Origin: Clostridiales bacterium
Lineage (GTDB): Bacteria; Bacillota; Clostridia; Christensenellales; CAG-138
Direction: 5' to 3'
Length of the DNA stretch: 64,000 nucleotides
NCBI GenBank assembly: GCA_024698505.1
Contig: JAILRE010000003.1
Coordinates: forward strand, 6,214 to 70,213
Positions 6,417-60,706 of this stretch are shown piece by piece; within the stretch, counting starts at the first letter, position 1; each line of letters opens with the position of its first letter. Below the pieces are notes generated by a model. It did no database searches and was not told the origin of the DNA. It was given only the letters and a program-made list of their open reading frames with translations. The position numbers and the translations under genes were made by a program.

Positions 6417-6974
6417 TCAAAGCTTTTCCGGCATATCGGCGGCGGGGTCTGCCGTCTTGACGGATGCGCCGTACCTGCAGATGACCGCGGTGATGAGGAA
6501 CGCTATGCCGAGGCCGAGGGAGGATACGCCGTACTCCAGCTTCATGTCCGCGATGCCGGGGAAGTACCTCTTTGCGATGGCAAGGCCAATCGCGATCACG
6601 ATACCTGCGCCGATCGAGAAGGCGATGGAGAGGATGCCGAGATCGCGAAGCTCGGTGGCGAGCTTATCGGTGAAGGGCTGGCCTTCGGCAAGCTCATGCT
6701 TGAAATAGTTCACGGCCTTCTTGGAGAGGATGATCTCCAGTATGAGAGAAAGGCCCGCTATCGCCATGGAGGCGTACATTGTCTCCTTATTGAGCTCGGG
6801 CATGTCGTAGATCTGGATCGTGGTGGAGTTAAGATCGAAGGACTCGGGCAGGAATATCATGCAGAGGGTGCCGAGCGCGCAGAGAACGAGGCCGACGATG
6901 CAGATGATGAACACGATCTTGGAAAGCACCTTGCCGATCTTGGCGAGGGTCTGGATGGTTTTCAGGCTTTTCAT
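6417..6974 (-). CDS. Hypothetical 4-TM membrane protein (DUF2975-like by appearance)
   Basis: 185 aa with four hydrophobic segments. GGAG-type SD upstream. Lies 22 nt upstream of the flavodoxin gene on the same strand. Confidence 0.55.
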   Translation of the reverse strand: MKSLKTIQTLAKIGKVLSKIVFIICIVGLVLCALGTLCMIFLPESFDLNSTTIQIYDMPELNKETMYASMAIAGLSLILEIILSKKAVNYFKHELAEGQPFTDKLATELRDLGILSIAFSIGAGIVIAIGLAIAKRYFPGIADMKLEYGVSSLGLGIAFLITAVICRYGASVKTADPAADMPEKL

Positions 6975-7010
6975 AACAATATTCTCCTTTTTTTATAATG
7001 CCTTGACGGT

Positions 7011-7039
7011 ATTATATTCCATTCGGGGCGGGAATTCAA
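7011..7039 (-). promoter_or_regulatory. Sigma-A-type promoter for the membrane protein-flavodoxin operon
   Basis: On the minus strand: TTGAAT(7039-7034)-17 nt-TATAAT(7016-7011). Confidence 0.55.
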
Positions 7040-7083
7040 TCTCTTAAATGTATCTTTTTTTCGTCTTGTGACGCAATATATAT

Positions 7084-7112
7084 TTGACACTTTGAGCCAA
7101 CAGGACTATAAT
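7084..7112 (+). promoter_or_regulatory. Sigma-A-type promoter for the aminotransferase-tdh-kbl genes
   Basis: TTGACA(7084-7089)-17 nt-TATAAT(7107-7112). Confidence 0.7.
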
Positions 7113-7162
7113 TTATCTGGTATGTGGATACCGATTATTTTGAGCGGAGGTTTGATCATCCT

Positions 7163-8443
7163 ATGCCTACTGTTTTCGAAATGACCCGTGAAGAGCAGGA
7201 GTCTCTTTACAAAGCCACCCTCGCGCAGTATGAGGAATACAAGGCCAAGGGCCTTAAGCTCGATATGTCCAGGGGCAAGCCCGGGCTCGATCAGCTGGCT
7301 CTTTCCGACGAGATGCTGAATATGTATATCGACCCGTCCGAGACCAAGATGGACGGCGTTGAAGCAAGGAACTACGGTGAGCTCATGGGTATGCCCGCGT
7401 GCCGCCGTCTTTTTGCGGAACTGCTCGGCGTCAAGTACGAGGAGGTCTTCGTGGGCGGCAGCGCTTCGCTGGAGCTCATGTATGACGTAATCGCCAAGGC
7501 CTACACTCACGGCCTTTTGCATTCCCCCGAAAAATGGGCTAAGCTCGACAAGGTCAAGTTCCTCTGTCCCGCTCCCGGTTATGACAGGCATTTCACCATT
7601 TCCGATACCTTCGGCATGGAAATGATCACGATCCCCCTCCTTGAGGACGGCCCCGATATGGATATGGTAGAGGAGCTCATCAAGGATCCGACCGTTAAGG
7701 GCATGTGGTGCGTTCCCAAGTACTCCAACCCCGACGGCGTAGTTTACAGCGAGAAGACGGTCTACCGCATCGCCAACATGAAGCCCGCGGCTCCCGATTT
7801 CCTGCTCATGTGGGATAACGCCTACTGCGTGCATGAGTTCGAGGGCAATTTCGTTCCCTTCATAAATATCCTCGAGGCCTGCCGTCTTGCGGGCAGCCCC
7901 GATATGGTTTTCGAATTCGCTTCCACCTCCAAGATCACGTTCCCAGGCGCGGGCGTTTCCTGCTTCTGCTGCTCCGAGGCGAACATGGCCTATATGAAGA
8001 AGCTCTGGAACGCGCAGATAATCAGCTACGACAAGCTCAATCAGCTCCGTCACGTCAAGTTCTTCGGCAACGCCGCGGGCGTGCTCGCTCACATGAAGAA
8101 GCACGCGGCTGTGCTCAAGCCCAAGTTCGATATAGTGCTCGATACCCTCGAGCAGGAGATAGCGCCCCTCGGTATCGCCACCTGGCATAAGCCGACAGGA
8201 GGCTACTTCGTATCCCTCAACACGATGGAGGGCTGCGCCAAGCGCGTGCACGAGCTCTGCAAAAACGCGGGCGTGGTAATGACCGGCGCCGGCGCGACCT
8301 TCCCCTACAAGAACGATCCCAAGAACAGCAATCTCCGTATAGCCCCCAGCTTCCCGCCCTGCGATGAGCTTGCCGAGGCAATGCAGGTGCTCTGCATCGC
8401 CATAAAGCTCGCCGCGCTCGAAAAGCTGCTGACCATAAACTAA
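7163..8443 (+). CDS. Class I/II fold PLP-dependent aminotransferase
   Basis: The ORF is open from GTG 7124, but the promoter at 7084-7112 leaves no room for an SD there. ATG 7163 follows GGAGG (7146-7150). Aminotransferase-like sequence includes the candidate PLP-Lys region [11 protein letters not shown]. Confidence 0.75.
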
Positions 8444-14538: not shown

Positions 14539-16494
14539 TTATCTGCCTATCATGCCGAAGAATTCATCCTCGGAGAGCACGGTCACGCCGAGCTGGCGCG
14601 CCTTGTCGAGCTTGCTGCCCGCGTTCTCGCCGCAGACGAGGTAATCCGTCTTTTTGCTTACGCTCCCCGAAGCGTGCCCGCCGAGCTCCTCGATAAGCGC
14701 CTCGACGGAGTGGCGGTCCATCCTCGAGAGCGTTCCCGTTACTACCAGCGTCTTCCCGCCGAGTACGGAGGGGGAGGCGCTCTTTTTCTCCTCACGCGGG
14801 CGCACGCCGAGGGCAAGCAGCTTATCCACCTGCGCGGAAAGCGATTCGTCCCTGAGGAAATCCATTATGCTGTCGGCGACTATCTCACCGACGTCCCTTA
14901 TAGCGACGAGGTCTTCGCGCTTGCAGGCGCGGAAGGCTTCGAGCGTGCCGAAAACGGATGCTATGTCCCTCGCGGTCTTTATGCCTACGTTGGGGATGCC
15001 GAGCGCGAATATGAACGAGGCGAGCGAGCAGTCCTTGCTCTTTTCGATGGCGCCGAGCAGGTTCGCTATGCGCTTCTCGCCGAACCCCGCGAGATCCTTG
15101 AAGCTGTGCGGCGTGAGCTCGTAAAGCTCGGGAATGTTTCGAAGCCCCGTCTCGTTTATCAGAAGCTCCGCCGTCTTCTCGGAGAAGCCCTCTATATCCA
15201 TCGCGTCGCGGGAGGCGAAATGCGCCAGCCTCGCCACTATCTGCGGAGTGCAGGAGAGCGAATTAGTGCAGAATACGTGCGCGCCGCGCTGTTCGATATG
15301 CGCGCCGCAGTACGGGCAGTGGGTGGGAGGCGCCACGGGGTTTTGGGGCTCGCCCTCGTCCGCGCTCGAGAGTATCTCGGGTATCACGTCGTTCGATCGC
15401 CTTATGAACACTCTGGAGCCAATGCCCACGCGCTTTCTTTTTATGTCGTCGTAATTGTTCAGCGTAGCGCGGCGGATGGTCGCGCCCATTAGCTCAACGG
15501 GCTCTACGTGCGCGAGCGGAGTCAGCTTGCCCGTTCTTCCGACCTCCCACGTGATGTCGGTCACGACGGTCGTCTGCTCCTGAGCGGGGAATTTATAAGC
15601 GATGGCGCCCCGCGGGAACCTGTCGGTATAGCCGAGGGATTCGGCCTTTTCCATGTCGTTGAGCTTTATTACCATGCCGTCGATATCGAAATCGAGATCG
15701 AAGCGGCGTTCCTCCGCGGCGGTTATGCCGCCGAGCACGCTCCCGATATCGCCGACGCAGCAAAGATCCTCCACCGAGAAGCCGTTATCACGCAGAAAAT
15801 CCAACATCTCGGTCTGGTATCTGAAGGACTTTCCTTCTATATAGCCCACGTCGTAAGCGGTGAAATCGAGCTTCCTTGCCGCCGTTACCTTGGGATCGAG
15901 GTTCCTCAATGCGCCCGCAGCGGCGTTTCGGGGGTTTTTCAGCTGTTCATCGGAATTGCGGTTCAGCTCCTCGAGCACGGAGACGCGCATATAGCATTCG
16001 CCCCTGACCTCGAATTTGCCGGTATAGGGAACGGTCAGCGGTATCGTGCGGATGGTCTTCGCCTGGGCGGTGATTCCCTCGCCGATAATGCCGTTGCCGC
16101 GTGTAGCCGCGTAGACGAGCACGCCGCCGTCGTAGGTGAGGTTGACGGTCAGCCCGTCGAATTTGTATTCCAGTATGAATTTGCGGCTCTCGTCCGCGGA
16201 GGGGCCGCATTTTGCCGCCCATTCCTTAAGGTCGTCGAAGGTCTTGACCTTGTCGAGGCTCCAGAGCCTTCTTATATGCTCGTGCTCCTCAAAGGAGGAA
16301 AGCGGCGCTCCGCCTACCCTGTGAGTGGGGGAATCGGGGAGCGTGACGCCCGTTTCGGCCTCGAGCCTGACCAGCTCGTCGAAGAGCGCGTCGTATTCGG
16401 CGTCGCTCGCGGGGGAGGCGTCGCGCTCGTAATAGGCGGCCGCCCAAGCTTTCAGCGTCGATATGAGTTCCTTCATTCGCTGTTCGTTATTCAT
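14539..16494 (-). CDS. ligA: NAD-dependent DNA ligase
   Basis: Adenylation motif KFDG (EYKFDGLTVNL). Zn finger CPYCGAHIEQRGAHVFCTNSLSC. HhH repeats and a C-terminal BRCT (TLVVTGTL). ATG 16494 lies 6 nt after GGAGG and overlaps the pcrA stop by 8 nt. Confidence 0.95.
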   Translation of the reverse strand: MNNEQRMKELISTLKAWAAAYYERDASPASDAEYDALFDELVRLEAETGVTLPDSPTHRVGGAPLSSFEEHEHIRRLWSLDKVKTFDDLKEWAAKCGPSADESRKFILEYKFDGLTVNLTYDGGVLVYAATRGNGIIGEGITAQAKTIRTIPLTVPYTGKFEVRGECYMRVSVLEELNRNSDEQLKNPRNAAAGALRNLDPKVTAARKLDFTAYDVGYIEGKSFRYQTEMLDFLRDNGFSVEDLCCVGDIGSVLGGITAAEERRFDLDFDIDGMVIKLNDMEKAESLGYTDRFPRGAIAYKFPAQEQTTVVTDITWEVGRTGKLTPLAHVEPVELMGATIRRATLNNYDDIKRKRVGIGSRVFIRRSNDVIPEILSSADEGEPQNPVAPPTHCPYCGAHIEQRGAHVFCTNSLSCTPQIVARLAHFASRDAMDIEGFSEKTAELLINETGLRNIPELYELTPHSFKDLAGFGEKRIANLLGAIEKSKDCSLASFIFALGIPNVGIKTARDIASVFGTLEAFRACKREDLVAIRDVGEIVADSIMDFLRDESLSAQVDKLLALGVRPREEKKSASPSVLGGKTLVVTGTLSRMDRHSVEALIEELGGHASGSVSKKTDYLVCGENAGSKLDKARQLGVTVLSEDEFFGMIGR

Positions 16495-18808
16495 TGTCAT
16501 CCTCCGCAAGCTTCATCACGACGTACGCGGCGGCAAGCCTCTTCACGCCGACTTTTTCGAAATCCACGGTTATTGTCGCCGTATTTCCGCTGCCCGATAC
16601 CTCGGTTATCACGCCGCGGCCGAATTTATCATGAATGACGCGCTGATACTTCTTGTATACCGAGGCGTCATGCTTTTTAACAGGCTCAGCAGTATAAGCA
16701 TCGGTTGACGGTTCTTTTTTTCCAAAAACGAACGATAGAGTGTTAGACTTCGAAGGTTGGTTGATAACCGAAGTTGTTTGGTCCGCTTTTTTCGGGTGCT
16801 GTATTGATGAAGACTTTCTTTCACTATATGTACCACGATTACTGGAAAAAAAACCACTCGAGTTTCTGTAAGTGTTTTGCAGGTGGTTGTAATCATTATT
16901 GTGAACAAGCTCCATCTCGCTCAAAAAACGCGACGGAATTATGTTTTTTGTAGTTTGACCATAAAGCATCCTTGATTTGCACGAAAGCAGGTAAAGCTCA
17001 TTTTCTGCGCGCGTAACACCTACATAACAGAGCCTCCGCTCTTCCTCTATGCGTGAATCACCTTCATCGGAACGAGTAGAGGGGAAAAGGTTTTCTTCCA
17101 TTCCTGCAATAAATACAACAGGGAATTCGAGCCCTTTAGCACAGTGAATAGTCATAAGCTTTACGGTACCGTGTTCATAGTCGTCATCAATAGAAGACAG
17201 TAACGCTGCATTCTCAAGGTAAGATATAAGTGGATCACCGTCTGTTCCAGCGTTATCTCTTTCGTGCTCTTGCGCACCATTAATAAGCTCGCTAATATTC
17301 TCAAGTCGAGCTTCGAGAAGCCCATCTTGAAGATCTTCAAGATACTCCGTATATCCGATTCGATCAATTATAAACTGTACGAATTCGCCAAGAGTCTTTT
17401 CTTTTTGCACTGCAATAATATCAGCCATGACTTTTGTGAACGGCTCAATTTTTTTATGCAGCGTTTCAGGAAGTAATCCTACCGTCGTAGCGGCATAGAA
17501 AAGAGGAACATCGGAACTCTTTGCATAATATGATAATTCAGAAATTGACTTATCACCAATTCCACGCTTTGGAACATTTACAATGCGTTTAAAAGCGACG
17601 TCGTTACTGGGGTTAGTAACAAGCTGCATATAAGAAAGAATGTCTTTGACTTCCTTTCTATCATAAAACCGCATCCCACCGATTATTGAGATGGGTATGT
17701 TGAAGCTTTGTTGAAGAGTGGACTCAATGCTTCGGCTCTGTGCATTAGTCCTATACAGAACGGCAAAGTCATTGTAGCTCATACCTCGCCTTTTTTTCTG
17801 CGCGATAATCGAACCAATTGAATAAGCTTCGTCCCGAGGATCTTCACATTCTCTTAATTCGACAGGCTTGCCGCCTTTGCGTTCTGACCAAAGGGCCTTC
17901 TCTGCGAATCTCGTATTGTGCCTGATTAATAAATTAGCTTTGTCTAAGATTTGCTGAGTTGAACGATAGTTTTGCTCAAGCTGAATAACTTTAGCTTCTG
18001 GATAATCTTTTGTGAAGTTACTGATATTACTGATATTTGCACCTCTCCAACCATAGATGGATTGATCGTCGTCGCCAACAACACAGATATTCCTGCTCTC
18101 TTGTGTTAGGAGGCGAATAATTTCATATTGAGTATGGTTGGTGTCTTGGTACTCATCAACGAGCATATACGAAAAACGAGCACGGTATTTTGCAAGTATT
18201 TCCGGACAGCTTTCGAAGAGCTCAACAGTTTTTAGCAATAAATCGTCAAAATCAAGCGCATTCGAAGCAGTTAATCTATATTGATACTCTCGGTATATTT
18301 CACAAATACTCCCGGTTTTGTCTTTGGTCATACGAAGAAAAGCTTCAGGGTTCGCGCCAGAGTTCTTTGCCTTTGATATTAAGGACCGAACATATTGCTT
18401 AGATGCGCGCTTCTCGTCTAGCCCCAGCTTTTTTATTATGTCTCCGATGACGGTGTTCTGATCGCCGTCGTCATAGATGGTGAACCGGCTCGTGAATCCG
18501 CCGAGCTCGGCAATATCGTAGCGCAGGACCCTCGCGCAGAAGGAATGGAACGTCGTCACCCACATATCCTTGGCGGAGACGCCGGTGAGCTTTTCGGTGC
18601 GCTCGCACATTTCGGCGGCGGCCTTGTTGGTGAAAGTGAGCGCCAAAATACGCCAAGGCTGTACGCCGTGGTTTTCGATGAGGTTCGCTATTCGGTAGGT
18701 GAGCACGCGCGTCTTGCCGCTGCCCGCCCCCGCCAGCACGAGGAGAGGCCCTTCGACCGTTTGGACGGCCTCCCTCTGCGGCGGATTGAGTGTTGAAAGA
18801 TCGAGCAT
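16487..18808 (-). CDS. pcrA: ATP-dependent DNA helicase PcrA (UvrD family), compositionally mosaic
   Basis: 773 aa with all SF1 motifs: AGAGSGKT, TFTNKAA, LVDEYQDTN, VGDDDQSIYGWRGA, QNYRS, TIHCAKGLEF, VGVTRA. C-terminal Tudor-like RVIHDKFGRGVI. The ATG directly abuts the stop of the upstream gene. Confidence 0.95.
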   Translation of the reverse strand: MLDLSTLNPPQREAVQTVEGPLLVLAGAGSGKTRVLTYRIANLIENHGVQPWRILALTFTNKAAAEMCERTEKLTGVSAKDMWVTTFHSFCARVLRYDIAELGGFTSRFTIYDDGDQNTVIGDIIKKLGLDEKRASKQYVRSLISKAKNSGANPEAFLRMTKDKTGSICEIYREYQYRLTASNALDFDDLLLKTVELFESCPEILAKYRARFSYMLVDEYQDTNHTQYEIIRLLTQESRNICVVGDDDQSIYGWRGANISNISNFTKDYPEAKVIQLEQNYRSTQQILDKANLLIRHNTRFAEKALWSERKGGKPVELRECEDPRDEAYSIGSIIAQKKRRGMSYNDFAVLYRTNAQSRSIESTLQQSFNIPISIIGGMRFYDRKEVKDILSYMQLVTNPSNDVAFKRIVNVPKRGIGDKSISELSYYAKSSDVPLFYAATTVGLLPETLHKKIEPFTKVMADIIAVQKEKTLGEFVQFIIDRIGYTEYLEDLQDGLLEARLENISELINGAQEHERDNAGTDGDPLISYLENAALLSSIDDDYEHGTVKLMTIHCAKGLEFPVVFIAGMEENLFPSTRSDEGDSRIEEERRLCYVGVTRAENELYLLSCKSRMLYGQTTKNIIPSRFLSEMELVHNNDYNHLQNTYRNSSGFFSSNRGTYSERKSSSIQHPKKADQTTSVINQPSKSNTLSFVFGKKEPSTDAYTAEPVKKHDASVYKKYQRVIHDKFGRGVITEVSGSGNTATITVDFEKVGVKRLAAAYVVMKLAEDDNE

Positions 18809-19978
18809 TTACAGTTCCTTTACGGCTTTTTCGAGCCTGAGGAGCGCGTCGTTCAGCAGGCTCTGCGGCAGAGCGAGGTTCCACCTGCGGAAGCCGTCGC
18901 CCGCTTCGCCGAACATCTCGCCGTCGTTATCTGCGATACGGGCCTTTTCGATCATGAACTCGTTCAGCTTCTCGTGCCCGAGACCGAGCGAACGCATGTC
19001 TATCCACGCAAGATAAGTGCCCTCCGCGCGGGTAACGCGGAACATGGGCAGGCGCTCCTCGAAGAAGCGGTACAGAAGCCCGAAATTGGAATCGACGACG
19101 GATATAAGCTCGTCTAGCCAGTTCGCGCCCTCGTTATAGGCGGCGATGGTCGCGGCCCTCGCTATGTAGGGCACGCAGCCGCAGCCGTCCACGTGGGCCC
19201 TGTTCCTGAACTTCTCGTGCAGCTCCGGGTTCGGTATGAATATGTTGGAGCAGGAGAGCCCGGCAAGATTGAACGTCTTGGAAATGGCGGTGCAGACGAT
19301 GCAGTTTTCGCTTGCGCCGGGGACGGATGCGAATACGGTATGCTTGAAGCCGGGGAGTATGAGATCGTTGTGGATCTCGTCCGAGACGACGAGCACGCCG
19401 TTTTTAAGGCAGATATCGGATATCCTTTGAAGCTCGTCGCGGCTCCAGACGCGGCCTATCGGATTATGTGGGCTGCAGAGGAGCATGAGCTTGACCTCGG
19501 GCAGGGCGGCCTTGCTTTCAAGATCGTCGAAGTCGATCTCGTAACGGCCGTTGTTATTTATAAGCGCGGACTTTACGAGCGTCCTTCCGTTGTCGTTGAC
19601 AGCGCCGTAGAAGGGATGATAGACGGGCGTCATTATGAGGACGCCGTCGCCGGGCTTCGTGAAGGCGCGCACGGCAATGCCGAGAGCCTGCACGACGCCG
19701 TTCGTAACGACGTACCAATCGTTCTCGATTTCCCAATCGTGGCGGGTCTTCTGCCAATGCTTCACGGCGTCCATGTAGGCCTTATCCGGGCCGGTATAGC
19801 CGTAGCAGCCGTGGAACGCGGCCTTGGCGACCGCTTCGTTCACCTCGGGAGGGGCGGCAAATTCCATGTCGGCTACCGTCATTGGGACAATGCCCGAGTC
19901 CCTGAGGGGCTCGGGCATGAAGTCATACTTAAATGCGCCGGTGTTTTTCCGGTCTATTATGGTGGTGAAATCGTACAT
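18809..19978 (-). CDS. MalY/PatB-type PLP-dependent aminotransferase / C-S lyase
   Basis: 389 aa. The N-terminus MYDFTTIIDRKNTGAFKYD is typical of the PatB/MalY family. Candidate PLP-Lys region AISKTFNLAG. Confidence 0.8.
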   Translation of the reverse strand: MYDFTTIIDRKNTGAFKYDFMPEPLRDSGIVPMTVADMEFAAPPEVNEAVAKAAFHGCYGYTGPDKAYMDAVKHWQKTRHDWEIENDWYVVTNGVVQALGIAVRAFTKPGDGVLIMTPVYHPFYGAVNDNGRTLVKSALINNNGRYEIDFDDLESKAALPEVKLMLLCSPHNPIGRVWSRDELQRISDICLKNGVLVVSDEIHNDLILPGFKHTVFASVPGASENCIVCTAISKTFNLAGLSCSNIFIPNPELHEKFRNRAHVDGCGCVPYIARAATIAAYNEGANWLDELISVVDSNFGLLYRFFEERLPMFRVTRAEGTYLAWIDMRSLGLGHEKLNEFMIEKARIADNDGEMFGEAGDGFRRWNLALPQSLLNDALLRLEKAVKEL

Positions 19979-20564: not shown

Positions 20565-22292
20565 TTACTCCGCGGAATGGAGCGCGCCGAAGTGGCAGAG
20601 CTGACCGCACATGCCGCAGCCTACGCACTGGGTGGGATCGATCCTGACGCCGGTCTCCGTCTTGATGATGGCGGGGCAGCCGACCTTGAGGCACATGCCG
20701 CAGCCTACGCACTTATCGGGATCGTTCACGAAGGGCTTGTTGTTCTGCTTGATTATGAGAGCGCAGGGACGGCGGCTGATCACTACGGAGAGGCCGTCTC
20801 TGGCGACTTCCTCGCGGAGGACCTTCTCGGTCTCCTTGAGGTCGAACGGATCGACTATGCGGACGGAAGCGACGCCCATCGCCTCGCAGAGCTTGACGAT
20901 GTCGAGCGCGGTGGTGGGATCGCCGTGGATGTCCTTGCCGTTGGCCGGGTTGTTCTGGTGGCCGGTCATGCCGGTGATGGAGTTGTCGGCGATTATGACG
21001 GTGCCGACGGAGCGGTTATAGGCCATGTTGAGCAGGCCGGTCATGCCGCTGTGGCAGAAGGTGGAGTCGCCCAGAACGGCAACTGTGCGCTTCGCCTGAT
21101 CGACGCCGCGGGCCTTCTCCATGCCGTGAGCCATGCCGATGGAAGCGCCCATGCAGACGCAGGTATCGACGCCGGAGAGGGGAGGCAGCGCGCCGAGGGT
21201 GTAGCAGCCGATGTCGGAGCAGACCGTGAGCTTGAGCTTGCCGAGCACGTAGTAGAGACCGCGGTGCGGGCAGCCGGGGCAGAGCACGGGAGGACGGCCG
21301 GGGATGTCGGTGGTGTTCATGGGGCCGACGGGCTCCGCGCCGTTGAACTTCTCGTCGATCTTGTGCATGAAGAGCTCGCCCTGAACGCCGGTCTTGTCCT
21401 TACCGGAGCAGGCGATGCCCCAGCTCTTGATGGCGTCCTCATAGAAGGGCTCCATATCCTCGATGACGTAAAGCGTCTCAACGCCGGCGGCAAACTCTTC
21501 GATGAGCTTCCTGGGAAGGGGATAGGCAAGGCCGAGCTTCAGAACGGAAGCTTCGGGCATGGCCTCTTTAACGTAGTTGTAAGCCGCGCCGGAGGTGATG
21601 ACGCCGATCTTGCGGTCGGCCCACTCGATGCGGTTGATGGGGAGGGTGGAGGCGTCCTCGGCAAGACGGATCTCGCGCGCTTCGACGACCTTGTGACGGC
21701 CGATCATGTTGGCGGGCATGGAGACGTACTTGCGGATATCCTTCTTATACTCGCGAAGCTCGGGGAGCACCCTTTCGCCGATCTCGACCAGCGTGCGCGC
21801 ATGGGCGATACGGGTGGTCAGACGGAGAATGACGGGGGTGTCGTACTCCTCGCTGAGCTCGAAGGCAAGCTTCATAAAGTCCTTGCACTCCTGGCTGTTG
21901 GAAGGATCGAGGCAGGGAGCGTGGGAAGCACGGGCGAGAAGCCTCGTGTCCTGCTCGTTCTGAGAGGAATGCATACCGGGATCGTCCGCAACGACGACTA
22001 CCATACCGGCGTTGATGCCGGTGTAGGTGGCGGTGAAGAAGGGATCCGCCGCGACGTTGAGACCGACGTGCTTCATGCAGGCCATACTGCGCGCGCCGCT
22101 TACGGCTGCGCCGAGAGCGACTTCTACGGCGACCTTCTCATTGGGAGCCCACTCGGAGTAGATCTCCTTGTAGTTCGCAATGTTCTCGTTGATCTCCGTA
22201 CTGGGGGTTCCGGGGTAAGCGCTGGAAACACGGACGCCCGCTTCGTATGCGCCTCTGGCAATTGCTTCATTGCCGAGCATAAGCTGTTTCAA
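20565..22292 (-). CDS. iorA: Indolepyruvate:ferredoxin oxidoreductase subunit alpha
   Basis: 575 aa with a TTG start 9 nt after AGGAGG. N-terminus MKQLMLGNEAIARGAYEAG. TPP-binding region. Two C-terminal 4Fe-4S motifs, CVGCGMCLKVGCP and CVGCGMCGQLC. Confidence 0.9.
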   Translation of the reverse strand: MKQLMLGNEAIARGAYEAGVRVSSAYPGTPSTEINENIANYKEIYSEWAPNEKVAVEVALGAAVSGARSMACMKHVGLNVAADPFFTATYTGINAGMVVVVADDPGMHSSQNEQDTRLLARASHAPCLDPSNSQECKDFMKLAFELSEEYDTPVILRLTTRIAHARTLVEIGERVLPELREYKKDIRKYVSMPANMIGRHKVVEAREIRLAEDASTLPINRIEWADRKIGVITSGAAYNYVKEAMPEASVLKLGLAYPLPRKLIEEFAAGVETLYVIEDMEPFYEDAIKSWGIACSGKDKTGVQGELFMHKIDEKFNGAEPVGPMNTTDIPGRPPVLCPGCPHRGLYYVLGKLKLTVCSDIGCYTLGALPPLSGVDTCVCMGASIGMAHGMEKARGVDQAKRTVAVLGDSTFCHSGMTGLLNMAYNRSVGTVIIADNSITGMTGHQNNPANGKDIHGDPTTALDIVKLCEAMGVASVRIVDPFDLKETEKVLREEVARDGLSVVISRRPCALIIKQNNKPFVNDPDKCVGCGMCLKVGCPAIIKTETGVRIDPTQCVGCGMCGQLCHFGALHSAE

Positions 22293-22461
22293 AACCTTGT
22301 ACCTCCTTGATGTATGTTACAGTCTTGCAACTGCTTTGTGTCTCTTTAATTATAATGTAAAAACGAGCGTAAATACAGTATATTCACTAATATATTTATA
22401 AAATTCCGCAAATACTTTTGAGAAAAGAGGGACGATATGCCCGAAAAGGAGGAAAAAGCCT

Positions 22462-24057
22462 TTGCCGCAAAAGAGAAATAACAGGTCCTTGTTCGCTTTC
22501 GACGAGGGGGATGAAAGATTCGAGCTCCTCGAGACGGAGCGCGGGGCTCCCGAAAAGCAGACGGGATGGAACGATTCGCATAAAAAAAGCAGAAAAGCCG
22601 GCGCGATACCACGGAGCGTGAACGCCGCGGAAAAGCTCCTGAGGGAGACGTTCTCGCCCGAAATAAACCCCGACCTCATCATAAGAAGATTCCGCACGGG
22701 CGGAGGAACGGAAGCGCTAATCGCCTATATGAACGGCATGGCGGACGACGCCAAGATAAACGAGTTCATACTGAAGCCTCTCATGCTCTGCAATGATAAG
22801 AAGCCGGACGCAGAATCGCTCCTTATGGGCGTGATAGAGATATCCGAAACCAAGCGCGAGACCTCCATGGAGAAGGCCGCGCTCGACGTAATGGACGGCG
22901 TTACGGCGCTCTTCATCGAAGGCGAAAAGGAATGCATACTGCTTGAAACGAGGGGCTTTGAAAAGCGGAGCATCGGCCCGGCCGAGAACGAGACCACGGT
23001 CATCGGCCCGAAGGAGAGCTTTACCGAGAGCTTCCGCACCAACGTAACTCTGATAAGAAGGGGGGTTCACACGAAGGATCTTATCGTGGAGCCCCGCCCC
23101 TCGGGGGGAAGGAACAACACGAGGCTCGCCCTCGTTTACAGAAAGGGCTTCACGAATCCGGAGCTTTTGGATGAAGTGAAGCGCAGGCTCGACGGGATCG
23201 CCGTCTCGGATATGCCGGGAAGCGGCGTGCTCGAACAGCTGATAGAGGACTGCGGATGGTCTCCTGTACCGCAGATACTCCAGACGGAGCGCCCCGACAG
23301 GGCGTGCTCGCACCTCATGCAGGGGAGGGTGTGCATAGTCGTGGAGGGGAGCCCCTTCGTGCTCCTAATGCCCGTCACGCTGTTTTCGCTCATGAACAGC
23401 CCGGAGGACGTTTATCTCAGAAAGCCGCTCGGCACGGCGATAAGGCTGATAAGATACGCCGGCGCGCTCATCTCCGTGATGCTCCCCGGGTATTTCCTGG
23501 CGTTGGCGCTGTATCATCAGGGCGTCATGTCAACGGAGGTGCTGAGCACCGTGATAGCATCGAGAAAAATGGTATTCGAGCCCATGGGCGCGGAGATGAT
23601 AATACTGCTCATGATATTCCAGCTCATAAGGGAGGCGGGGCTGAGAGTCCCCGGGAGCATAGGCCAGGCGATAGGCATTATAGGCGGCCTCATAATGGGG
23701 CAGGCGGCGGTCGCGGCGCATCTTGCAAGCTCCGTGGTGCTGATAGTCGTCGCGGCCTCGGGCCTGGGAAATTTCTGCATCCCCGATTACAGCCTGCAGA
23801 TATCGGCGGCGTACATGCGGCTCGCCGTCGTGATATCCGCATGGATGGGAGGCCTTCTCGGCATGGTGGCGGTCACGCTGACAGCTCTCTGCCATCTCGC
23901 TTCGCTTAAGAGCTTCGGAGTGCCGTTCCTCGCTCCGTTCGCCCCTAAGACCTACCGCAAGCGGACGCTCGTTCTGAGGGGGAATATAGGGATGCATGAA
24001 AGAGCGGACGATTACGCCAACACCGCGGACGACGCCGAGATATGGGAGGAAGCATGA
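22462..24057 (+). CDS. Spore germination protein, GerA-family A subunit
   Basis: 531 aa with a TTG start 9 nt after AGGAGG (start uncertain). GerAA-like core and C-terminal TM bundle. Followed by B and C subunit genes. Confidence 0.85.
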   Translation: MPQKRNNRSLFAFDEGDERFELLETERGAPEKQTGWNDSHKKSRKAGAIPRSVNAAEKLLRETFSPEINPDLIIRRFRTGGGTEALIAYMNGMADDAKINEFILKPLMLCNDKKPDAESLLMGVIEISETKRETSMEKAALDVMDGVTALFIEGEKECILLETRGFEKRSIGPAENETTVIGPKESFTESFRTNVTLIRRGVHTKDLIVEPRPSGGRNNTRLALVYRKGFTNPELLDEVKRRLDGIAVSDMPGSGVLEQLIEDCGWSPVPQILQTERPDRACSHLMQGRVCIVVEGSPFVLLMPVTLFSLMNSPEDVYLRKPLGTAIRLIRYAGALISVMLPGYFLALALYHQGVMSTEVLSTVIASRKMVFEPMGAEMIILLMIFQLIREAGLRVPGSIGQAIGIIGGLIMGQAAVAAHLASSVVLIVVAASGLGNFCIPDYSLQISAAYMRLAVVISAWMGGLLGMVAVTLTALCHLASLKSFGVPFLAPFAPKTYRKRTLVLRGNIGMHERADDYANTADDAEIWEEA

Positions 24058-48803: not shown

Positions 48804-49175
48804 TTACTTAACCTCCTCGATCCATGCGGCGATCTCATCAATATCGCTCGGCTTTACGTTGCCGTTGGCGTAAAATGCTTTAACAAGATCAGCGATGGAA
48901 GCGCCGGGCTCGCCGGTGAAGAGGTGCCCCTTGGTGATGGCAAGGTATTCGGCCCTTGTCACACAGGGTACGTACTCGAAGCTTCTGACGCGTTTACCGA
49001 CCATCTCTATAAAGCCTTTCATGTGGAGCCGGTTAACAAATGTCTGCACAGTCTGGTAAGTCCATTTGTTTTCGCCGATGGCGAGCCACACGTCCTTGAT
49101 GGTCGTCGGCTTGTCCGCTTCCCAGATCTTGGTCATGACTTCAAGCTCTGCAGCGGATACGTCCTTAATGATCAT
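48804..49175 (-). CDS. BlaI/MecI/CopY family transcriptional repressor (no adjacent sensor gene)
   Basis: 123 aa. MIIKDVSAAELEVMTKIWEADKPTTIKDVW...TVQTFVNRLHMKGF is a winged-helix of the penicillinase-repressor family. SD GAAGGGGG. Confidence 0.85.
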   Translation of the reverse strand: MIIKDVSAAELEVMTKIWEADKPTTIKDVWLAIGENKWTYQTVQTFVNRLHMKGFIEMVGKRVRSFEYVPCVTRAEYLAITKGHLFTGEPGASIADLVKAFYANGNVKPSDIDEIAAWIEEVK

Positions 49176-49207
49176 ACAGAAACCCCCTTCCTTATCATAG
49201 TATTATC

Positions 49208-49235
49208 ATTATATAACATGTAAAAAGATTGTCAA
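49208..49235 (-). promoter_or_regulatory. Sigma-A-type promoter of the blaI-like gene
   Basis: On the minus strand: TTGACA(49235-49230)-16 nt-TATAAT(49213-49208). ACATGT palindrome (49216-49221) sits inside the spacer. Confidence 0.65.
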
Positions 49236-49240
49236 GCATT

Positions 49241-49271
49241 TTTTTCACATTTTTCTCATTTTTGTGAAAAA
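49241..49271. repeat. Inverted repeat TTTTTCACA-N13-TGTGAAAAA next to the blaI-like -35 box
   Basis: 9-bp perfect arms at 49241-49249 and 49263-49271. Confidence 0.85.
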
Positions 49272-49442
49272 GAAAATGTATTAATTCCCTTTATTCGGGG
49301 AATAATTCGAGGCTATGACGTTGCGTAGTCTGCGGGATATCACAAAAGTGTATATTTTATTACATTACATAATGCGATAAAAAGTTACAAAATCCCCGCA
49401 TGCTCGGCCGTGCTTGAAAAGACATTTGCCGGCGTCATTCCG

Positions 49443-50384
49443 TCATTCACCGATATCCTTCAAAAGCTCCGCATACCTGAGCGCGGCATATACGCGGAGG
49501 TATTTCAGCCTTGAAGAGAGCTCGGCGCGGCTTCCGAAGCCGGTGGAGGCAGCCCTCAGCTTTTCCGCGATATCCGTATAGAACGCGTTTACCTTTTCGA
49601 GCATGGCGTTCCTTGTGGCCGCTTCGCCGATACCTTCGGAGGCGGTCATAGAGTTTCGTTCCATTTCGGAAAGCACGCCCAAAGCGTACTCCTCGCTCCT
49701 GTTCGAAGCGTCGAAATCCAGAGCGAGCTCGTCAAGCTGGTCGACCGTCTCCGGAGCCAGCGCGAAAGCCGTGCGGATGGGGAGGAGTCTCTCGACGGAC
49801 GAGGTGACTACGAGCTCTACCTCGGTCGAGGAGAGCTTTATCACGGAGCATTCCCGCCCCTCCGATACGAGTCTTTCCTTCACGCTCCCGGCCGAAGCCT
49901 CGTCGGAATACGCGGCGGCGATGAGCCTGAAGCTGCCGTTATCCTCGTAGACGTACCCTGCGGCGCCAAGCGCTTTTACGGCTTCAGCGGCTCTTTCGCA
50001 GTTGGCTCTGTCGTCGAAGACACCGAGCTGCAGCATGTATATGTCGATACCGCGAAGCTTTACCCTTGCCGTTTCGCCCGTTGGCGCGGCTGTGGGAACG
50101 GCTGTCGCTTCCGGCGTTTTCTCGGCAGCGGCGAGCGTGGGCAGGGGAGTTGCCCGCTGCGCTTTCATTACGCAGCTCTTGGCGAATGAAAGGTCGAGGT
50201 TTTCCTTGATCCTTCTTCCCGCGCCAGTGCCCAAAATAAGATATGCCGCCGCGCCGAAAAGCACGAGCAGTATGAATGCCTGCGCCGCGCCGCTCATGCC
50301 CTTCGCCGCTTTTTTTCTTCTCCTTCTGCGCCTGTATTCCATGCTTAAAACCTTTGGCTTTTCCGAAAAAAGCCGACCTTTCAT
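49443..50384 (-). CDS. Membrane-anchored SPOR domain protein
   Basis: 313 aa. Arg/Lys-rich N-terminus, one TM (AFILLVLFGAAAYLILG), and a SPOR-like module YMLQLGVFDDRANCERAAEAVKALGAAGYVYEDNGSFRLIAAAY. AGGAAG precedes ATG 50384. Confidence 0.75.
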   Translation of the reverse strand: MKGRLFSEKPKVLSMEYRRRRRRKKAAKGMSGAAQAFILLVLFGAAAYLILGTGAGRRIKENLDLSFAKSCVMKAQRATPLPTLAAAEKTPEATAVPTAAPTGETARVKLRGIDIYMLQLGVFDDRANCERAAEAVKALGAAGYVYEDNGSFRLIAAAYSDEASAGSVKERLVSEGRECSVIKLSSTEVELVVTSSVERLLPIRTAFALAPETVDQLDELALDFDASNRSEEYALGVLSEMERNSMTASEGIGEAATRNAMLEKVNAFYTDIAEKLRAASTGFGSRAELSSRLKYLRVYAALRYAELLKDIGE

Positions 50385-58505: not shown

Positions 58506-59798
58506 TCACTCAAGATCGTTTCCGTTTGCGAGCATAATTCGCAGTATCTCCCTGTCGGTCTCGCGCATTCCGTCCTTGCCGAGCCTGCCGATGTTCGCGA
58601 TGGTGTTCTCAACGCCCTTGGAGATTATCCCGTCGCCGCCCTGGAACTCCATGCCGCGGACGTACATCTGGTAGCCCAGTATGCCCGCGTCAACTGCGGA
58701 GGCGATCTTCGCAGCGCAGCTGGGCTTCGCGCCGTCGCAGACGATGCCGCTGACGATGGCGAGGGAATTGACGAGCGTATGCGCCACGACGTCGAAATTG
58801 CCGCCCAAAAGGTAGGCAATGCCGGCGCCCGCTCCGCAGCCCGCGTTCACCGCGCCGCAGAAGGCGGAGAGCCTGCCTATCCAGGTCTTCTGGTGTATCG
58901 TTACGAGATTGGAAACGCAGAGGGACCTTAACAGCTTGTCCTCGCCCACGTCGTACTCCCTTGCGTAGACTATCACGGGAAGCGAAGCCGCCATGCCCTG
59001 GTTGCCGCTGCCTGAGACGATTATGACGGGCATTTCGCACCCGCTCATCCTCGCGTCGGAGCCCGCGGCGGCCATTGCCTTGGCCCTTATCTTCACGTCG
59101 TAGCCGTAAACGTCGAGCAGTACGCGGCCTATCCTCGCGCCCCAATTGCCCCTTATGCCTTCGTTGGCGATGGCGGTGTTGTATTCTATCTGGCGGCCGA
59201 TGGTCTCCCTGATATCGTCAAGCTCGACGGTGTCGGCAAAATCGACTATGTCCTTTATCGTGAGCAGGCCGCGGTCGGTAAGGCCCTGGGAGCTGAGCTC
59301 GATCTCAGGCGCGCTGAAGAGCGTCTCGCCGTTCTTCTGGATGAGCACCACGTTGGTGTGATAATCCTTGATACGAAGGCGGCTGAACTCGCGCTCCTTG
59401 TGCATGGTGATGTCGATATCGAATATGACGTCCTCCTTCGAGGGGCGGACTATCATCGGCACGCTGTGCATGAATTCCTTGATGAGAGGCTTTTTATCCT
59501 CGGGAACGTTTGAAAGCACCTCGAGAACTCCGTCGGCGTTGCCGACGACTATGCCCGCGGCAGCCGCGGCCTCGATGCCCTTCAAGCCGCCCGTATTGGG
59601 GACTATGACGGATTTGACGTTCTTGATAATGTTGCCGCTTACGGTGATCTCGACCCTGTCGGGAATGGAACCAAGCACGCTCCTCGCTTTTGCGGCGGCG
59701 AAGGCGATCGCAATGGGCTCGGTGCATCCCATGGCGGGGACGAGCTCCTCCTTGAGGATATCGATATAGGCTTTGTATTTGGGATCAGTAGGCAGCAT
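58506..59798 (-). CDS. UPF0597 / L-cysteine desulfidase-like (serine dehydratase alpha-like) protein
   Basis: 430 aa. The N-terminal motif PAMGCTEPIAIAFAAA is characteristic of this family. SD GGGAGG. Confidence 0.8.
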   Translation of the reverse strand: MLPTDPKYKAYIDILKEELVPAMGCTEPIAIAFAAAKARSVLGSIPDRVEITVSGNIIKNVKSVIVPNTGGLKGIEAAAAAGIVVGNADGVLEVLSNVPEDKKPLIKEFMHSVPMIVRPSKEDVIFDIDITMHKEREFSRLRIKDYHTNVVLIQKNGETLFSAPEIELSSQGLTDRGLLTIKDIVDFADTVELDDIRETIGRQIEYNTAIANEGIRGNWGARIGRVLLDVYGYDVKIRAKAMAAAGSDARMSGCEMPVIIVSGSGNQGMAASLPVIVYAREYDVGEDKLLRSLCVSNLVTIHQKTWIGRLSAFCGAVNAGCGAGAGIAYLLGGNFDVVAHTLVNSLAIVSGIVCDGAKPSCAAKIASAVDAGILGYQMYVRGMEFQGGDGIISKGVENTIANIGRLGKDGMRETDREILRIMLANGNDLE

Positions 59799-59830
59799 GG
59801 ACTTGACCTCCCGAAAAATCTGCTTTTTAC

Positions 59831-59859
59831 ATTATACATTAAAAAGTCCCGTTTTTCAA
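59831..59859 (-). promoter_or_regulatory. Sigma-A-type promoter of the UPF0597-folD-GNAT operon
   Basis: On the minus strand: TTGAAA(59859-59854)-17 nt-TATAAT(59836-59831). Confidence 0.6.
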
Positions 59860-59906
59860 GGAGAGCGCGGCCGATGACGCAAAAAGATAAAAAAGAAAGG
59901 AAAATG

Positions 59907-59920
59907 TCGTAAATCGTAAA
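59907..59920. repeat. Tandem 7-mer TCGTAAA x2 between divergent promoters
   Basis: 59907-59913 and 59914-59920 are identical. The repeat ends 19 nt before the -35 of the gntR-type gene. Confidence 0.8.
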
Positions 59921-59939
59921 AAAACCGCCATTCGAAAGC

Positions 59940-59968
59940 TTGACAAGCAGAGCTATCCGGTGTATAAT
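59940..59968 (+). promoter_or_regulatory. Sigma-A-type promoter of the GntR-family regulator gene
   Basis: TTGACA(59940-59945)-17 nt-TATAAT(59963-59968). Confidence 0.7.
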
Positions 59969-60028
59969 ATATAAGAATACGGGCCAAGCTATGCGCGCGG
60001 CTCAATACTAACGGAAGTGAGATTAAAA

Positions 60029-60706
60029 ATGAGTACACAGCTTAAAGACATTGCTGAAGAAATGCATCAGAAATCAATGGCCGCGAGGGACTGGGTATTC
60101 CAGGTCATCCGTACAGCCATCATCCGCGGTGTCCTGCCCGGAGGTATGCCTCTCCGTCAGGATGAGATCTCGGCGCAGCTTTCCGTCAGCCACATCCCCG
60201 TAAGGGAAGCGTTCCGTCAGCTCGATGCTCAGGGCCTCGTCAGGATCTACCCGAACCGCGGCGCAGTCGTTACCAAGCTCACCAAGGAAGAACTTGAGAA
60301 TGCCATGGATACCCGCATCATACTTGAGCTCGGCGCTATCCGCGCGGCAGTTCCCCACATGACCGATGAATGCATCGAAAAGGCAGAGGCCATTCTTGCC
60401 CAGGCTTCCGAGGAGGACGATCCCAACAAGCTTGAGGATCTGAACCTCCAGTTCCATTTCGCTCTCTATGAGGCTGCGCAGAATCCCTTCATTCTCCAGC
60501 TCATCGAGCAGCTCCACGCCAACGTCGACAGGTACATCCGTCCCTACTACACCCCCTCCGAGGCGTACGCTCAGACGGTCGGCGAGCACCGCAACCTCAT
60601 CGAGGCCTGCCGCAACGGCGACGTTGAATATGCCTGCGCGATCCTCCGCACCCATCTTGAGAAGACGAAGGTCCTTTCCATCAACTCTCCGCTTCTCGCC
60701 GTATAA
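60029..60706 (+). CDS. GntR family transcriptional regulator (FadR-like, FCD-type C-terminal domain)
   Basis: 225 aa from ATG 60029. N-terminal winged helix (LRQDEISAQLSVSHIPVREAFRQLDAQGLV) and an all-helical C-terminal domain. Confidence 0.85.
   Translation: MSTQLKDIAEEMHQKSMAARDWVFQVIRTAIIRGVLPGGMPLRQDEISAQLSVSHIPVREAFRQLDAQGLVRIYPNRGAVVTKLTKEELENAMDTRIILELGAIRAAVPHMTDECIEKAEAILAQASEEDDPNKLEDLNLQFHFALYEAAQNPFILQLIEQLHANVDRYIRPYYTPSEAYAQTVGEHRNLIEACRNGDVEYACAILRTHLEKTKVLSINSPLLAV

Follow-up and report, generated by a model that had tools for sequence, protein, structure and literature searches.

How does a single helicase gene come to be written in two base compositions? This question is raised by pcrA in a 64-kb stretch of DNA (the window), which forms part of a contig of about 80 kb from a host that, judged by its relatives, is an uncultured Clostridia lineage closest to ruminant-gut metagenome-assembled genomes (MAGs). 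The open reading frame (ORF), at 16487-18808 on the minus strand, is uninterrupted over 773 codons, and its product, designated WIN in the comparisons below, is a full-length PcrA/UvrD-type superfamily 1 (SF1) helicase. An earlier note on this DNA had described pcrA as a mosaic, with about 1.8 kb of A+T-rich DNA between host-like ends, and had proposed that the helicase core was replaced by an allele from a lower-G+C donor. Our analysis confirmed the mosaic composition. We consider it probable that pcrA is a true mosaic, with native ends and a core that was replaced through recombination with a fragment of a relative's allele.

The genomes used for comparison were found with LigA, the product of the gene downstream of pcrA. 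The search returned 13 ruminant-gut Clostridia MAGs at 76-84% identity, followed by more distant clades including Christensenellaceae-type and Pelethousia MAGs. Twelve of the 13 (L001-L004, L006-L012 and L037) are referred to as the sisters.

Composition and divergence breaks within pcrA

Sliding-window analysis revealed a G+C content of about 0.57-0.65 in the flanks of pcrA versus 0.375-0.46 within the block, and a recount of the eight 60-nucleotide (nt) lines counted by hand in the earlier note gave exactly the same values. A two-change-point maximum-likelihood fit set the boundaries at 16624 and 18443 and the G+C at 0.41 between them and 0.59 beyond. The G+C contents at the first, second and third codon positions (GC1/GC2/GC3) were 0.58/0.45/0.79 in the N end (amino acids, aa, 1-122), 0.49/0.36/0.38 in the core (aa 123-728) and 0.60/0.40/0.69 in the C end (aa 729-773), and the core columns of ten high-G+C sisters gave 0.59/0.39/0.78. 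The GC3 profile is thus not flat, and a block model of GC3 gained 42 log-likelihood units (lnL) over a homogeneous gene. When breakpoints were placed from GC3 alone, the 2-lnL support intervals covered codons 120-138 (+18394-18448) and codons 709-729 (+16622-16682). Two intragenic change points are therefore statistically supported, each with an interval of about 20 codons, and they divide the gene into the following parts:

18443-18808, minus strand: 5′ segment of host-like composition (codons 1 to about 122); Walker A (aa 29) and motif Ia (aa 58) lie here, in the first half of domain 1A
18394-18448, minus strand: 5′ breakpoint interval, codons 120-138, from the 2-lnL interval of GC3; excess aa divergence begins at about aa 136
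16624-18442, minus strand: A+T-rich core, codons about 123-728; G+C 0.41, GC3 0.38; domain 1B, second half of 1A, 2A, 2B and linker
16622-16682, minus strand: 3′ breakpoint interval, codons 709-729, from GC3; excess divergence stops at about aa 720; start of the C-terminal Tudor-like domain
16487-16623, minus strand: 3′ segment of host-like composition (codons about 729-773); includes most of the C-terminal Tudor-like domain, aligning to residues 672-719 of the PcrA structure 1PJR

The A+T signature of the core is also visible in the protein. The enrichment in Lys, Asn, Ile and Ser pointed out in the earlier note is real against the 12 sisters (z = 2.1, 5.1, 3.0 and 1.8, respectively), and Ala, Val and Arg are depleted. 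Residues of the Gly/Ala/Arg/Pro class (GARP) make up 20% vs 26%, and those of the Phe/Tyr/Met/Ile/Asn/Lys class (FYMINK) 30.5% vs 25.9%. A comparable dip in pcrA was found in 0 of the 12 sister genomes, and in 45 related loci the G+C of pcrA equals that of its surroundings, which indicates that the dip is peculiar to this genome. The block is also unique within the window, where the remaining low-G+C runs are all at most 435 nt long and lie at gene boundaries.

Comparison with the sisters revealed a break in divergence at the same places. In the N end, the aa identity between WIN and the 12 sisters was 0.84, equal to the sister-sister mean of 0.84, and the nt identity was 0.80 against 0.79. 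In the core, the aa identity fell to 0.59 against a sister-sister mean of 0.74 (minimum 0.66), and the nt identity to 0.58 against 0.73. The C end gave 0.76 against 0.73 for aa and 0.74 against 0.71 for nt. In a sliding comparison, the excess aa divergence was positive all along aa 136-720 and about zero on either side (aa 1-135 and 721-773). Exact matches of at least 14 nt to the sisters were dense in both ends, with many of 14-39 nt in the N end, and nearly absent from the core. The divergence break is a second signal, independent of composition, with the same boundaries, and these comparisons support the view that the history of the core differs from that of the ends. The order patB-pcrA-ligA is kept in all 12 sisters.

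The junctions themselves were then inspected for shared sequence and for marks of mobile elements. Within the 5′ breakpoint interval, all sisters conserve a stretch of locally high A+T content (GAC ATA ATA AAA AAG CTG GG), which includes a 17-nt exact match to L006. At the codon level, the 3′ interval sits in the conserved start of the Tudor-like domain. The host-like side of the 3′ junction carries exact matches of 14-15 nt (to L002 at +16616 and to L001 at +16600), and longer matches of 17-24 nt occur at +16576, about 46 nt deeper in the C segment. No flanking repeats were found around the block, only short two-copy chance repeats; it contains no extra genes or integrase, and no tRNA was noted there, although tRNAs were not specifically scanned for. 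A mobile insertion or genomic island was rejected, given the lack of flanking repeats, the colinearity of the block with a pcrA homologue throughout and a gene order that is the same as in the sisters.

Silent sites and phylogeny of the core

The silent sites of the core bear on the question of whether the A+T-rich sequence arose in place. At conserved four-fold-degenerate sites of the core, WIN has T 67, A 34, G 23 and C 22 times, while the frequencies of C and G in the sisters at these sites are 0.49 and 0.33. In a small sample of 53 sites, the third base of WIN showed no association with the base found there in the sisters (Fisher p = 1.0 and 0.57), whereas a genuine sister used as control, L010, retained the silent-site signal (p = 0.006). 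Transversions were frequent; at sites with G in the sisters, WIN shows T in 8 cases and A in 4. The core is thus saturated at its silent sites, as would be expected from a long independent history in an A+T-rich genome. A recent in-situ C>T/G>A hypermutation of the native allele was rejected, because these saturated sites hold no memory of the sisters' bases and the sister control was positive.

Distance trees with 200 bootstrap replicates were used to place WIN relative to the 12 sisters. WIN was nested among the sisters in 200/200 replicates of the LigA tree and in 197/200 of the tree of the PcrA ends, and the sisters were monophyletic without WIN in 0/200 and 3/200, respectively. The core behaved differently: with all columns, WIN was nested in 27/200 replicates and the sisters were monophyletic without it in 173/200. 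For the helicase part of the core, the latter figure was 171/200 on gap-free columns and 188/200 after Dayhoff-6 recoding. In a relative-rate comparison, the distance from the core to the outgroup was 0.84 for WIN versus 0.64-0.68 for every sister. The core branch appears to be about twice as long, and to be attached at or outside the base of the sister clade, or near its crown.

These results bear on the earlier note in two ways. Its proposal of replacement from a lower-G+C donor stands as far as a separate history is concerned, as seen in divergence, silent sites and tree position, but no grouping of the core with low-G+C taxa from distant lineages was seen. The note had also held that shared nearest relatives for core and ends would speak against a mosaic. 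The nearest relatives do belong to the same clade for both, while attachment depth and branch length differ, so that this sign is ambiguous. A distant low-G+C donor was rejected, since the core is closest to the host's own sister clade, both in the core tree (200/200) and in the best database matches (61-62% identity).

A search of 5.8 billion proteins with the whole protein returned only the sister clade, at 64-65% identity. Two further searches were of limited reach. A 126-aa divergent piece of the core (frame verified) gave 0 matches as a query and missed even the window's own protein, since the word index is insensitive to queries this short, and is hence uninformative rather than evidence of absence. 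Scans of metagenome and genome contigs with core peptide patterns are a weak negative only, as the matches listed were saturated with the universal YMLVDEYQ motif and known sisters were not among them.

Protein anatomy and genomic context

The product of pcrA scored 832.6 bits against NCBIfam TIGR01073 over residues 4-763, and this was the top family, ahead of UvrD and Rep. The curated equivalog cut-off of 911.2 bits was not reached, which may be a property of the clade and not a consequence of the mosaic. Automated annotation would probably go no further than 'UvrD-helicase domain-containing protein', the name that the sister proteins bear in NCBI.

The protein aligns colinearly to Geobacillus stearothermophilus PcrA (PDB 1PJR), with residues 4-633 matching residues 9-642 of the chain (E = 9e-178) and residues 717-763 matching 672-719. 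All helicase motifs are present: GSGKT at aa 29, TFTNKAA at 58, DEYQD at 218, GDDDQSIY at 245, QNYRS at 279, YRTNAQS at 352 and VGVTRA at 596. The statement in the earlier note that the motifs from DEYQD to VGVTRA lie inside the block was thereby borne out. Based on the alignment, and on domain limits that we take to be those of the published 1PJR structure, the block takes in domain 1B, the rear half of 1A with motifs II and III, domains 2A and 2B in full with motifs IV-VI, and a low-complexity linker. What remains native is the front half of 1A, with Walker A and Ia, and the greater part of the C-terminal Tudor-like domain.

Residues invariant among 26 clade relatives were examined in each segment. 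The ends keep 59/59 of them (N end 53/53, C end 6/6) and the core keeps 144/156; the number of changed invariant core columns is thus 12/156 in WIN versus 0-1 in sister controls. Eight of the 12 changes (D258N, E266T, F269Y, R276Q, R301F, K302A, T308S and E324P) cluster at aa 258-324 (17836-18037), between motif III and the region after motif IV. Of these, R301F and K302A may partly result from a local alignment shift (WIN NTRFAEKAL). With the helicase motifs and 144 invariant core residues kept, the sequence is consistent with a mosaic PcrA that is a working enzyme. The essentiality of pcrA is known from Bacillus and Staphylococcus. The C-terminal Tudor-like domain is the main RNA-polymerase-binding module of PcrA/UvrD. 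The earlier note had speculated that contacts of PcrA with rolling-circle initiators and with RNA polymerase might place a swapped core under selection, and the RNA-polymerase part of this idea is weakened, because the Tudor-like domain lies largely outside the block.

The genes surrounding pcrA are housekeeping genes, comprising the patB-family lyase gene, iorA/iorB, ligA and a C69 dipeptidase gene. The two immediate neighbours of pcrA are both host-like:

14539-16494, minus strand: ligA, NAD-dependent DNA ligase; NF005932 at 749.5 bits; 76-84% identity to the sister MAGs
18809-19978, minus strand: patB-family C-S lyase gene; TIGR04350 at 433 bits; 60-83.5% identity, immediately upstream of pcrA in L001-L012 and L037

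The pcrA ATG follows directly on the patB stop codon, and the end of pcrA shares 8 nt with the start of ligA, including the ligA ATG (ATGAATAA). The intact frame and both gene contacts are as the earlier note had described them. In the sister MAG L011, the match to the patB-like gene upstream of pcrA (655-1817) is split into two pieces that overlap (aa 2-240 and 234-389), which suggests a frameshift, either in a pseudogene or by assembly error.

Elsewhere in the window, low-G+C stretches of 338-435 nt (G+C 0.42-0.45) occur at 22207-22544, 6868-7261, 49074-49508 and 59734-60123. One of them separates the divergent genes iorA (20565-22292, minus strand) and ORF 22462-24057 (plus strand). These short boundary stretches look like ordinary A+T-rich intergenic or promoter DNA and not like mosaic blocks. 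At the start of the same plus-strand ORF, a positive AT skew of 0.29-0.46 was observed over 22400-23100, well above the rest of the profiled region.

Origin of the core and comparison with known systems

In the history that we consider probable, about 1.8 kb of pcrA (roughly codons 123-728) would have been replaced in frame, at homologous positions, by the matching piece of another pcrA allele, with 0.37 kb at the 5′ end, 0.14 kb at the 3′ end and the neighbour genes remaining native. The lack of flanking repeats, extra genes and a second copy in the window argues for such a colinear in-frame replacement. A paralogue as conversion donor was rejected for the 64-kb window, which is the part of the genome covered and contains no second copy. 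The incoming allele would have long evolved in a much more A+T-rich genome, of about 40% G+C by extrapolation. Its source may be an unsampled lineage that evolves faster and branches at the base of the host's own family-level clade or just outside it, and the donor molecule could have been a chromosome or a mobile element with a clade-derived copy of pcrA. Since the alleles differ at about 42% of nt, an ordinary homologous exchange is improbable, and we infer crossovers in short conserved stretches, probably through a microhomology-assisted or homology-facilitated process and not through ordinary RecA exchange. As the GC3 of the core is unameliorated (0.38 vs 0.79), the event would be recent relative to amelioration and to the split from the sisters.

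The G+C content varies widely among related MAGs (L009, L010 and L013-L017), with 0.45-0.48 in a CAG:138/Christensenellaceae-like clade and 0.50-0.60 in the sisters. This wide range makes an even more A+T-rich unsampled relative (about 0.40) plausible.

Several results weigh against a replaced core. In the core tree, the sisters and WIN together were monophyletic in 200/200 replicates, so that the core still falls within the host clade. Monophyly of the sisters without WIN dropped to 84/200 on the composition-neutral columns of the core helicase part and to 83/200 for the first half of the core (aa 136-385), and with this drop phylogeny alone does not separate import from a near relative from acceleration of the same lineage. 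Among the 5.8 billion proteins, there was no closer relative of the core than the host's sister clade, which supplied all of the best matches. Plasmids, phages and IMG/VR viral contigs contained no relative of the core above 46% identity, and an origin from these sources was rejected on that basis. Recombination between alleles about 42% divergent in nt is expected to be extremely rare. Finally, a single contig is the only recorded source of the mosaic protein, and an exact-sequence look-up was empty.

The last point leads to an artefact as the source of the pattern. If the assembler had left the path of a 59% G+C organism inside pcrA for that of a co-occurring A+T-rich relative and then returned, each time through short shared k-mers, the mosaic would exist in no cell, and the same in-frame pattern at homologous positions would result. 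Such a metagenome assembly chimera is favoured by the fact that the close relatives are all MAGs, by the single-contig record and by the position of both breakpoints in conserved coding stretches with plausible short identical runs (the 17 nt shared with L006 and the 14-15 nt shared with L002 and L001). However, it would require two switches 1.8 kb apart with a return to the same 80-kb host contig, and the assembly graph would have to lack the core of the host itself even though its flanks were assembled over tens of kb. Exact matches near the junctions reach at most 23 nt even between sisters of about 80% identity, making shared k-mers of at least 21 at both ends unlikely for alleles about 42% divergent. 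The pcrA of the supposed second organism is moreover absent from all other public assemblies, and such an organism is arguably too rare to take over the assembly path. We therefore regard a chimera as unlikely, though it is the chief rival to recombination. Quite unlikely, in our view, is a variant of the recombination model in which a phage, plasmid or integrative and conjugative element (ICE) of the clade captured pcrA long ago, drifted to low G+C and then converted the chromosomal gene. It would jointly explain the clade affinity, the long branch, the 12 changed invariant positions, the low G+C and the opportunity for recombination. Against it stand the search of plasmids, phages and IMG/VR described above, the presence in the core of the clade-typical long linker together with colinearity to chromosomal PcrA over the full length, and a G+C gap of 18 points, which is large for an element and its host.

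The core might also have diverged in place, through a localized A+T-biased acceleration of the native sequence (regional hypermutation or relaxed constraint) with no transfer. The closest relatives of the core are indeed the host clade, its attachment lies near the host's node on an approximately twofold branch, its basal placement is equivocal on composition-neutral columns, and 12/156 invariant residues are altered. But the edges are sharp, at about 20 codons each, with zero excess divergence beyond them, and 0/12 sisters show any trace of the change. The silent sites, with their saturation, frequent transversions and loss of the sister-base memory that the sister control retains, do not carry a recent deaminase-type signature. 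We know of no mechanism that would shift GC3 from 0.8 to 0.38 over 1.8 kb of one essential gene while sparing its ends and neighbours, and divergence in place thus seems hardly credible. With regard to the cause of the proposed replacement, one could imagine an adaptive swap, in which the motor core (1B, 2A and 2B), which is contacted by DNA and by helicase-recruiting or helicase-inhibiting factors of replicons and phages, was exchanged for a divergent allele in conflict with rolling-circle plasmids or phages, the host-matched parts (the nucleotide-binding N half of 1A and the RNA-polymerase-binding Tudor domain) were kept and the changes at aa 258-324 mark the contested surface. We consider this scenario very unlikely.

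If the replacement is real, it is an unusually clean case in which a core and probably essential replication and repair gene tolerates the exchange of about 78% of its length for an allele about 41% different in protein. The breakpoints would then lie inside structural domains, and fragment transfer would reach past the usual divergence limits of homologous recombination. It would also point to an unsampled A+T-rich, fast-evolving relative of this ruminant-gut Clostridia clade. Such blocks can mislead single-gene phylogenies, marker-gene taxonomy and checks for MAG chimerism. If the mosaic is an artefact, it usefully illustrates how a double switch within one gene can yield a chimera that would escape contig-level quality tools.

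Classic examples of mosaic genes are pbp and penA of Streptococcus and Neisseria. As in other genes formed by fragment transfer, an internal block of a single-copy orthologue would have been replaced in frame at homologous positions, the ends and neighbours are native, and the segments appear to differ in phylogenetic signal. Unlike the classic alleles, whose divergence is typically about 5-25%, the pcrA block is about 42% divergent in nt and 41% in aa, with a G+C drop of 18 points. Transfer breakpoints within ORFs are common in prokaryotic orthologues, being found in 19.6% of 1,462 gene sets (Chan et al., 2009; PMC2817436), and our literature search found no report of a mosaic pcrA. The mosaic pcrA is most likely a known kind of event, gene-fragment recombination, in an unusually stark form. 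With genomic islands and other low-G+C acquired DNA, the block shares a codon-atypical low-G+C stretch within a higher-G+C chromosome, but it appears to replace homologous coding sequence in one housekeeping gene and adds no cargo. Compared with Geobacillus stearothermophilus PcrA (1PJR/3PJR) and the PcrA/UvrD/Rep SF1A helicases, the protein is colinear, has all motifs and the C-terminal Tudor-like domain, and is likewise encoded directly upstream of ligA. It differs from them in scoring below the TIGR01073 cut-off, in the change of 12 clade-invariant residues and in being encoded by DNA of two compositions.

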